Shown one piece after another: positions 36,750 to 49,708 of a stretch of DNA of 64,000 nucleotides. The notes beneath the pieces were generated by a model. It did no database searches and had not been told where the DNA came from. It worked only from the letters and a program-made list of their open reading frames with translations. Within the stretch, counting starts at the first letter, position 1. Every line of letters begins with the position of its first letter. This DNA comes from Octopus vulgaris (lineage: Eukaryota), in assembly GCA_951406725.2 (NCBI GenBank), contig OX597816.1, positions 153,264,001-153,328,000 on the forward strand, read 5' to 3'. A program made the translations under genes and the position numbers.

Positions 36750-36801
36750 ATCCACCAGACCAGGTTGGTTTCGGGCTATTTTCTCATCCTCAGTGGTGGA
36801 T
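36750..36801 (-). ncRNA. Type I hammerhead motif with damaged stem II, in a ~320-bp cassette between (TA)n tracts
   Basis: auccacca CUGAGGA ugagaaaauagccc GAAA cca-acc-ugGUC ugguggau: perfect 8-bp stem I, 4-bp stem III, GUC site. Confidence 0.7.
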
Positions 36802-48075: not shown

Positions 48076-48890
48076 CTATCCATCCACATACACACAAGAA
48101 CACACACGCACACTCACACACACATACACATACACCACACACACACACACACTTATATGTGCTTGAACGTGCGATTAAGGCAGGATTATACATGTGGATG
48201 TGTGCATGTGAGCATGTATGTGTTTGCTTGTTTGTGTGTATGTGCGTGTATGTGTGTGTATGTGATGGAATGCCGGGAAGATATTGTGCATGAGAGAGAG
48301 AGTGAGAGAGAGAGAATAGTGAGGGAATTTGTATATGACTGATTGTCTTAGTGATATCAGTTGTCTGCATGTGTCTGTGTGAATGTCTTATATGCGCGAA
48401 TGCGTAAGTAGCCTGATCAAGATGACATCAAAGAGCATAAATCATGCGTGCTACTGAAGACTTTGGCAGTGTTAATTAACTTTTAATTAGAACTAAACAT
48501 AGCGATGTTGGTTGCAATCTCAGAAGCTGCTCTTTCATTCCATTTCAGAGGCTATCACTGTTCGGAACTTGTTATTTGTGATATATTCATGCAATACAGC
48601 TATGTGATATGTCTATCTGATAGCAAGATATCAGCAAAATAAAATGCATTTATTAGAAATTAATTGCTCTCTCTGTGATTTGCATCTATGTATGTATGTA
48701 TGTATGTATGTATGTATGTATGTATGTATGTATGTATGTATGTATGTATGTATGTATGTATGTGTGTGTATGTATGTATGTACGCATGAACGGATGTATA
48801 TGTGCGTATGGATATGCATGTGTGTGTTTGTATGTATATGAATGTAAATTACATTTAGCTATACAGTCAGTACTCAATAACTAAAGCTGA

Positions 48891-48956
<66 letters not shown>

Positions 48957-49034
48957 ATATATATATATATATATTTTTAAGAAAAATAAAAACGGAAAAT
49001 ACGCACACTTACATGGTTATGGTATAATTTTTAA

Positions 49035-49071
49035 TGTATCGACTGGTTTCGCAATCGCTATTCATGATACA
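49035..49071 (-). ncRNA. Minimal hammerhead-like motif with A3-U8 core variant (left arm)
   Basis: uguauc AUGAAUA gc-gauu-gc GAAA ccaGUC gauaca: perfect 6-bp stem I. Confidence 0.6.
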
Positions 49072-49273
49072 ATGTTTAATTTATATGAAAATATATTTTT
49101 TGTTAAGAAGAAAATGGGTCCATGTTGTTTATAATGAGATTCACGAGTGAATGATTTTACAAGAATGATTTTACTTGTCAACTTGTAAAATCATTCACTC
49201 GTGAATTTCATTATAAACAACATGGACCCATTTTCTTCTTAAGAAAAAATATATTTTCATATAAATTAAACAT

Positions 49274-49310
49274 TGTATCATGAATAGCGATTGCGAAACC
49301 GGTCGATGCA
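49274..49310 (+). ncRNA. Minimal hammerhead-like motif with A3-U8 core variant (right arm)
   Basis: uguauc AUGAAUA gc-gauu-gc GAAA ccgGUC gaugca: stem III palindrome ACCGGU, GUC site. Confidence 0.62.
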
Positions 49311-49708
49311 TTAAAAATTATACTATAACCATGTAAGTGTGCGTATTTTCCGTTTTTATTTTTCTTATATACATTACAATCCACCACGTGGGGACAACCG
49401 AAGTTCCTCTTTACTGTTACTACTATATACATATATATATGTATGTATGTATGTATACATACGTACATACATACATGCATACATATATATGTATATATGT
49501 GTATGTGCATAAACACACGCACACACACACATGTGAGAGGTTTTGCTATCCAGAAGTCCCAAAAGGCAAGTACAATTATGTAAGTGCTACGGAAGGATCA
49601 CTGTTAGACTCCTGGTTCGATAATAGTATGAGTGAGGAGTCTAACGGGGGCTGTGTAAGAAAACCGAGGCAGTGTGAAATTTCTAGGACATTTATAAAGA
49701 GAAAGGTA

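Follow-up and report, generated by a model that had tools for sequence, protein, structure and literature searches.

The palindrome at positions 48978–49367 of the window (the whole 64,000-nt stretch of Octopus vulgaris DNA that was analysed) has arms at 48978–49163 and 49182–49367 that are reverse complements with 5 mismatches in 186 positions, separated by an 18-nt spacer, which bears out the 186-bp-arm palindrome of the preliminary description. The region folds in prediction as a single RNA hairpin (−292 kcal/mol, z = −46). A (TA)n/(TG)n microsatellite target lies to its left (48890–48977). The element extends beyond the palindrome to about 49424 as a 57-nt 3′ tail (49368–49424, + strand) that is common to many copies of the family and absent from the left arm; (TA)n-type repeats also occur after 49424, so that a target-site duplication is unreadable. 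Alignment of the arms and comparison of copies identify the left arm (48978–49163, − strand) as an inverted copy of the 3′ pLTR of a Penelope-like retroelement (PLE), ending at the short 3′ end of the family without a tail, and the right arm plus part of the spacer as a 5′-truncated sense pLTR copy (49169–49367, + strand). The turn-around junction (49164–49174, + strand) repeats 11 nt of the arm (49150–49160) and shows ∼6 nt of microhomology to the sense copy, in which homology to a longer copy begins at 49169; we infer a template slip or switch at this point. The palindrome is a 5′-truncated, head-to-head insertion of a PLE end with a one-sided tail, in (TA)n.

A search of the genome (2.8 Gb, microsatellite-rich) with the arm returned 1,369 candidates, 40 of which were scored, with identities of up to 99%. 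One longer copy (locus L032) encodes a reverse transcriptase (RT) followed by a C-terminal GIY-YIG endonuclease (EN), with Pfam RVT_1 and GIY-YIG above cut-off; no piece of the PLE ORF was found in the window itself. Translations contain a C-x4-C-x2-C linker between RT and EN that fits the CX2-5CxxC of Neptune/Nematis, and the microsatellite target with its (TA)n flanks is likewise as in Neptune/Nematis, a likeness in linker and target. The 3′ end is the same from copy to copy; 5′ truncation varies in extent and can reach into the RT-EN coding sequence, and the spacers vary too. An inverted second copy occurs within 1.5 kb in 7 of the 30 best loci (two of the seven being the same element), and some other inverted copies stand 2.3 kb apart. 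In partial tandems the tail runs on into the 5′ UTR and ORF start of the next unit, the ORF starting ∼175 nt past the core, and no element with both pLTRs was found among the 8 regions checked. This organization fits the published form of PLE insertion, comprising an inverted pLTR, a one-sided tail, microhomology and a microsatellite target (Arkhipova et al. 2013, PMC3846280; Craig et al. 2021, PMC8557442), so the palindrome itself is ordinary and its arms, both derived from one insertion event, are not independent evidence. As the setting for a ribozyme, the palindrome of the preliminary description is real but is this routine inverted-pLTR form, with the motif trapped in double-stranded RNA. 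Unrelated palindromes of 180–600 bp with arm identities of 76–88% also occur near the elements (L031:6758–7361; L032:8058–8234; L033:8770–8986). Many of the GIY-YIG matches found genome-wide also score identically and lie in open frames of 781 aa, a pattern suggestive of a very young and possibly active PLE family other than the one considered here.

Each arm carries a minimal hammerhead, set out towards its outer end as a 6-bp stem I, the core, a 2-bp stem II, GAAA and a GUC site. The right-arm motif (49274–49310, + strand) is of type I and comprises stem I (49274–49279/49305–49310, 6 bp), the core at 49280–49286 with A3 at 49280 and U8 at 49285, an 8-nt stem-loop II of 2 bp (49287–49294), GAA (49295–49297), the palindromic stem III half (49298–49303) and C17 (49304), with the cut predicted between 49304 and 49305. 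The left-arm motif occupies 49035–49071 on the − strand, with A3 at 49065 and U8 at 49060. Core positions 3–9 read ATGAATA in both arms (+ 49280–49286; − 49065–49059), in agreement with the preliminary description, which gave AUGAAUA with changes at exactly positions 3 and 8; A3 and U8 stand in place of the canonical C3 and G8. Watson-Crick complementarity between positions 3 and 8 is present, as A-U here and as U-A and C-G in related families, and the rest of the hammerhead core is intact (U4 G5 A6, A9, G12 A13 A14, A15.1-U16.1, NUH, G10.1-C11.1). The description of the motif as well formed holds for stem I, GAAA, the GUC site and the 2-bp stem II, but the ACCGGU palindrome is found in the right arm only, the left arm reading ACCAGU with a substitution at 49044 by which it has lost the dimer palindrome, and the right-arm stem I has one G-U pair (49308) where the family has A-U. 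A3-U4-G5 also forms an upstream AUG with an 18-codon frame (49280–49336, + strand) that is not the main ORF start. The expectation that canonical searches would miss the variant is borne out: Rfam returned no match for the whole window at the gathering score, and for 49200–49400 with E up to 10 it returned no hammerhead and three chance matches at E 8–10. A separate hammerhead-like motif in the window (36752–36799, − strand) has the canonical C3-G8, an 8-bp stem I and a weak stem II, and similarity to the RT/EN of the A3-U8 family was not found in the 6 kb around it.

The A3-U8 state is a family trait, present in ∼1,000 copies, and across the family the motif greatly exceeds chance expectation. 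An exact 25-mer search of the genome gave 174 matches against 0 in a reversed-pattern control, and forcing position 3 to C, G or T with positions 7–8 free gave 2, both G3-U8. A loose descriptor recovered 1,013 A3-U8 matches against 4 in the control, 144 C3-G8 matches against 0 and 1,931 K3-M8 matches against 40; 98 of the first 100 listed of these last are U3-A8 and 2 are G3-A8, from which a U3-A8 total of about 1,900 is extrapolated. With the same descriptor, A3 with non-U8 gave 74 matches (24 in the control; about 40 belonging to the A3-U8 clade, by eye) and non-A3 with U8 gave 70 (24 in the control; about 35 of the clade, by eye), and these off-state clade copies are spread across all subfamilies, as decay after insertion would give. 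As a guard against circularity, the motif was also read in 60 loci chosen by ORF homology alone, yielding 30 alignments and 24 distinct read-outs: 19 are A3-U8, 2 A3-G8 (from overlapping loci, probably one place), 1 C3-U8 and 1 A3-C8, and 1 is gapped at a junction. Fixation of A3-U8 in the family, a point that the preliminary description had singled out for checking, is upheld by these counts. Its word “rare” suits the variant in print and not in this genome, where it is common. In all four sequencing runs, labelled as four organisms, no variant reaches 10% at any core position among reads of at least 80% likeness, the only ones counted; loop II, stem I and the flanks do vary in those runs.

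The A3-U8 elements form one clade with UFBoot 100 in a second protein tree that kept 25 of 27 loci (L127 and L128 fell below the 150-aa cut) and left out L117, L033, L103, L107 and L108. The clade has FastTree support of 0.998 in the first tree, apart from L117, which groups there with U3-A8 elements. In L117 the distance between the EN end and the A3-U8 motif is 946 nt, versus ∼290 nt in family copies; the motif is for this reason taken as probably a nested insertion, so that L117 is set aside as an A3-U8 member outside the clade. U3-A8 is the state of the neighboring families UA1–UA4, and C3-G8 that of an outgroup family, whose motif was read in L128 and which the tree represents by L152 (same family by EN motif). 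Because the closest relatives are U3-A8, UA1 also sharing the 2-bp stem II and CCGG, comparison of these sequences indicates that A3-U8 likely arose via U-A → A-U, at a UFBoot of 51 for the branching order among clades; the C-G → A-U change of the preliminary description keeps its end point and probably not its start.

No amplified family fixed for a 3-8 mismatch was found among the genome matches and loci examined. The preliminary description named paralogs with a canonical or unpaired 3/8 combination as a contrary case: no family fixed in an unpaired state appeared, the related families being U3-A8 or, in the outgroup, the canonical C3-G8. What looked like a U3-U8 family (by eye, 25 of the 70 non-A3/U8 matches) was discarded, being a repeat unit without stem I in the 3′ UTR of another PLE, ∼400 nt upstream of the real, terminal U3-A8 motif of that family; the unit is possibly a decayed second motif. 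It is one of the tandem degenerate units in the 3′ UTR of that family (L118–L123, L129, L147, L148, L153 and L154; e.g., L120:3430–3770). In a related PLE family (L140 and L146, both copies read) the motif lies 730–900 nt after the EN match and has U3-A8 together with GCAA for GAAA (A13C).

The Watson-Crick pair between positions 3 and 8 of the hammerhead positions the 2′-OH of residue 8. Przybilski and Hammann reportedly found in 2007 that any Watson-Crick 3-8 pair kept cleavage in two type III ribozymes, one of which preferred Y3-R8, and Lunse, Weinberg and Breaker are said to have described, in 2016/17, about 150,000 stem-III-diminished PLE motifs cleaving as dimers. Within the hairpin of the window the probability of stem I is ∼1e-43 and, with the motifs on opposite strands, each transcript strand has only one sense motif; held in the 186-bp hairpin, this copy is predicted not to cut. 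Isolated 57-mers have stem I probabilities of 0.67–0.92, against 0.05 (right arm alone) and at most 0.01 (a 5′ pLTR) in longer contexts. The double hammerhead is the best predicted dimer in 4 of 11 sequences (three copies of other A3-U8 subfamilies and one U3-A8 copy), lies within 2.5 kcal/mol of the best in 4 more, including the right arm of the window, and is far from the best in the remaining 3; the left arm and a canonical C3-G8 control are among these, and with the control failing the dimer test discriminates weakly. In the subfamily of the window alone, stem-loop II (49287–49294) is self-complementary, and the double hammerhead loses by 2.5 kcal/mol to a misfolded dimer in which A3 pairs with U16.1.

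Constraint on the core was assessed between subfamilies. The two most distant of these show 0 differences in 16 core positions against 46 in 152 other pLTR positions (Fisher p 0.0045), and the second and third subfamily pairs show 0/16 against 34/206 (p 0.063) and 29/148 (p 0.038), the subfamilies having been picked partly by core pattern, with the same majority among copies found by ORF homology. Near the motif, subfamilies differ at N7 (A/U), in loop II and in stem I, where two changes are compensatory. An 11-row alignment, built of related rows that also supplied the structure, has 7 of 9 pairs changing on both sides and 85.9% of its cells paired, compared with 0 of 500 shuffles that match it and at most 40% in slid controls. 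Two-sided changes affect all six pairs of stem I; one pair of stem II is invariant and the other has a one-sided change. The roughly estimated, post hoc chance that two changes fall on a paired couple among the 16 core positions and yield a Watson-Crick pair is 0.3–1%, and the A-U state, having arisen once, counts as a single evolutionary event. What survives of the selected double compensatory change of the preliminary description is a conserved, covarying minimal hammerhead with family-wide A3-U8; the agreement of the two arms does not count, since they stem from one event.

We considered several other origins for these observations. Long, near-perfect inverted arms are what a MITE or foldback DNA transposon, or a dedicated double-ribozyme hairpin element, would present, a reading to which we attach almost no credence and which we regard as refuted by the PLE structure of the copies, the RT and GIY-YIG domains and the hairpin fold: a fixed 3′ end, variable 5′ truncation into RT-EN, variable spacers and a one-sided tail speak against the transposon, and the double-ribozyme element would be left with one motif per transcript, paired with its own antisense. 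The pair could also be neutral, two changes carried along by a successful master element once its ribozyme no longer mattered. A single origin is in keeping with this, as is the decay seen in individual copies, from which core positions are no more spared than others, but the absence of any core change between subfamilies that differ by 17–30% elsewhere in the pLTR, the compensatory changes of stem I and the low chance of a paired Watson-Crick double change make hitch-hiking improbable. Retention of A3 for the sake of A3-U4-G5, as an AUG start codon or a regulatory upstream ORF, is more improbable still. The 18-codon frame does end at a donor-like site in two subfamilies, and some published PLE ORFs are described as beginning inside the pLTR, but the frame spans anything between 3 and more than 30 codons depending on the copy, subfamily changes in the frame are mostly non-synonymous and U8 is left unexplained. 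The main ORF begins ∼175 nt further downstream, where the sister family also has its start; the core AUG is accordingly rejected as the main start and is at most an upstream AUG that cleavage would remove.

A more substantial rival, though still an unlikely one, is that the motif has ceased to cut and is conserved as a signal, recognized by its fold or its sequence, that might for instance bind RT-EN or initiate reverse transcription; A3-U8 would then preserve shape and not catalysis. Hammerhead mutants of PAc, an Anolis PLE hammerhead, are reported to leave insertion unaffected (Frangieh et al. 2024, PMC11167929). Minimal PLE hammerheads reportedly cut weakly in vitro, and only as multimers (Cervera and De la Pena 2014, PMC4209133), and in a full pairwise mutational scan at 3-8 the G-C swap is given as the only one rescued, A-U not being so (PMC9901934). 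The related family with GCAA for GAAA, which nonetheless keeps U3-A8, points the same way. Against a pure signal, the subfamilies do not differ at G12 or the NUH triplet (residues of catalysis and of the cut site) or in the dimer palindrome, and variation is confined to positions known to be free in hammerheads. We consider it somewhat more probable than all other readings together that the family carries an A3-U8 hammerhead under selection in its master elements, predicted to be a slow cutter that acts as a dimer or with the help of protein, the copy in the window excepted. In its favor are the fixation of A3-U8, the constraint on the core, the three Watson-Crick states that positions 3 and 8 take in the genome (C-G, U-A and A-U) and the double hammerhead as predicted best dimer of the three copies from other A3-U8 subfamilies. 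Against it stand the mutational scan in which A-U was not rescued, the weakness of stem I in longer contexts, the misfold of the subfamily in the window, the single origin of A-U and the want of a two-pLTR element in 8 regions. Cleavage is also reported to be dispensable for insertion in vitro, and RNA-seq read ends to be missing from the cut site of the Anolis element (Frangieh et al. 2024, PMC11167929), while Naiads are described as spreading without hammerheads (Craig et al. 2021, PMC8557442). PAc gives a precedent for assistance by protein, since it is reported to cut only with its protein and to be rescued by a 3-8 swap (PMC11167929).

Under the selected-hammerhead reading, A3-U8 would retain the 3-8 Watson-Crick pair that positions the 2′-OH of residue 8, and two pLTR motifs would pair via ACCGGU to form a double hammerhead. 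A cut after C17 would process tandem read-through RNA at a site ∼150 nt before the ORF start, taking away the upstream AUG created by A3; in the copy of the window, the 186-bp hairpin would silence the motif. A bolder version, which we put forward tentatively as a minority possibility, is a natural C-G/U-A/A-U series across related Penelope families in which A3-U8 is an active, amplified class (∼1,000 copies in several related organisms), nearly dead in in vitro scans, that is enabled by dimerization or by its own protein and whose cut removes the AUG made by A3.

Of the Watson-Crick states that the core pair can take, A-U is the least reported, and the family offers a natural case of it that is high in copy number, can be traced phylogenetically and comes with its own controls, the U3-A8 and C3-G8 relatives of the same genome. 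It makes testable both selection for catalysis in the minimal hammerheads of PLEs and relaxation of the Y3-R8 preference by a protein or dimer context. It also exposes a blind spot of canonical descriptors, in that one descriptor finds 144 C3-G8 motifs against about 2,900 that are U3-A8 or A3-U8. If an active A3-U8 class is real, entire families of ribozymes escape censuses based on CUGANGA, and the label ribozyme-less may be wrong for some PLEs.

U3-A8 is already published for PLEs, and A3-U8 is a rarely reported natural variant. Our literature search, whose coverage excludes Lunse 2016/17, Przybilski 2007 and part of the Cervera supplement, found no report of a natural A3-U8, and it found PLE hammerheads of this taxon nowhere beyond Craig 2021. 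A U3-A8 core family has been described in Schistosoma PLEs (Cervera and De la Pena 2014, PMC4209133), and A3-U8 is absent from the rows of Figure S3 examined in that paper, which are C3-G8, two U3-A8 and one U3-G8.

As an insertion, the element is like the EN+ Penelope insertions (Arkhipova et al. 2013, PMC3846280; Craig et al. 2021, PMC8557442) in its 5′ truncation, inverted 5′ copy, one-sided tail, microhomology junction, microsatellite target and Neptune/Nematis-type C-x4-C-x2-C linker, and its tail of ∼57 nt compares with the 30–40 nt described there. A non-LTR retrozyme was rejected as an identification, given that such elements consist of 150–450 bp units in head-to-tail tandem and bear a canonical type I hammerhead, whereas the arrangement here is head-to-head and PLE-derived. 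The genome does hold a separate retrozyme-like family of ∼359-bp tandem units, often with an inverted block and in both C3-G8 and U3-A8 forms (L038–L067, e.g., G000:C1:20002278–20004542; L035:5967–7592; L078).

As a ribozyme, the motif resembles the pLTR hammerheads described for PLEs (Cervera and De la Pena 2014, PMC4209133) in its type I topology, its pLTR position, its palindromic stem III, the opposite-strand pairs 100–700 bp apart and the retained G10.1-C11.1; with a 2-bp stem II and no extra nucleotide after A9, it is closest to the insect and rotifer variants with a short palindromic helix III. PAc, from a Poseidon element of Anolis (Frangieh et al. 2024, PMC11167929), is likewise a PLE hammerhead, and its activity is reported to require the 3-8 pair; it has the canonical C3-G8 and its ORF starts inside the ribozyme, unlike the ORF here. 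The natural U3-A8 examples of Perreault et al. (2011, PMC3088659), where a 2-bp stem II and a weak stem III are also reported as natural, have the same compensated 3-8 pair, and the present motif differs from them in placing a purine at position 3 and a pyrimidine at position 8, and in forming a family of ∼1,000 copies rather than scattered examples.
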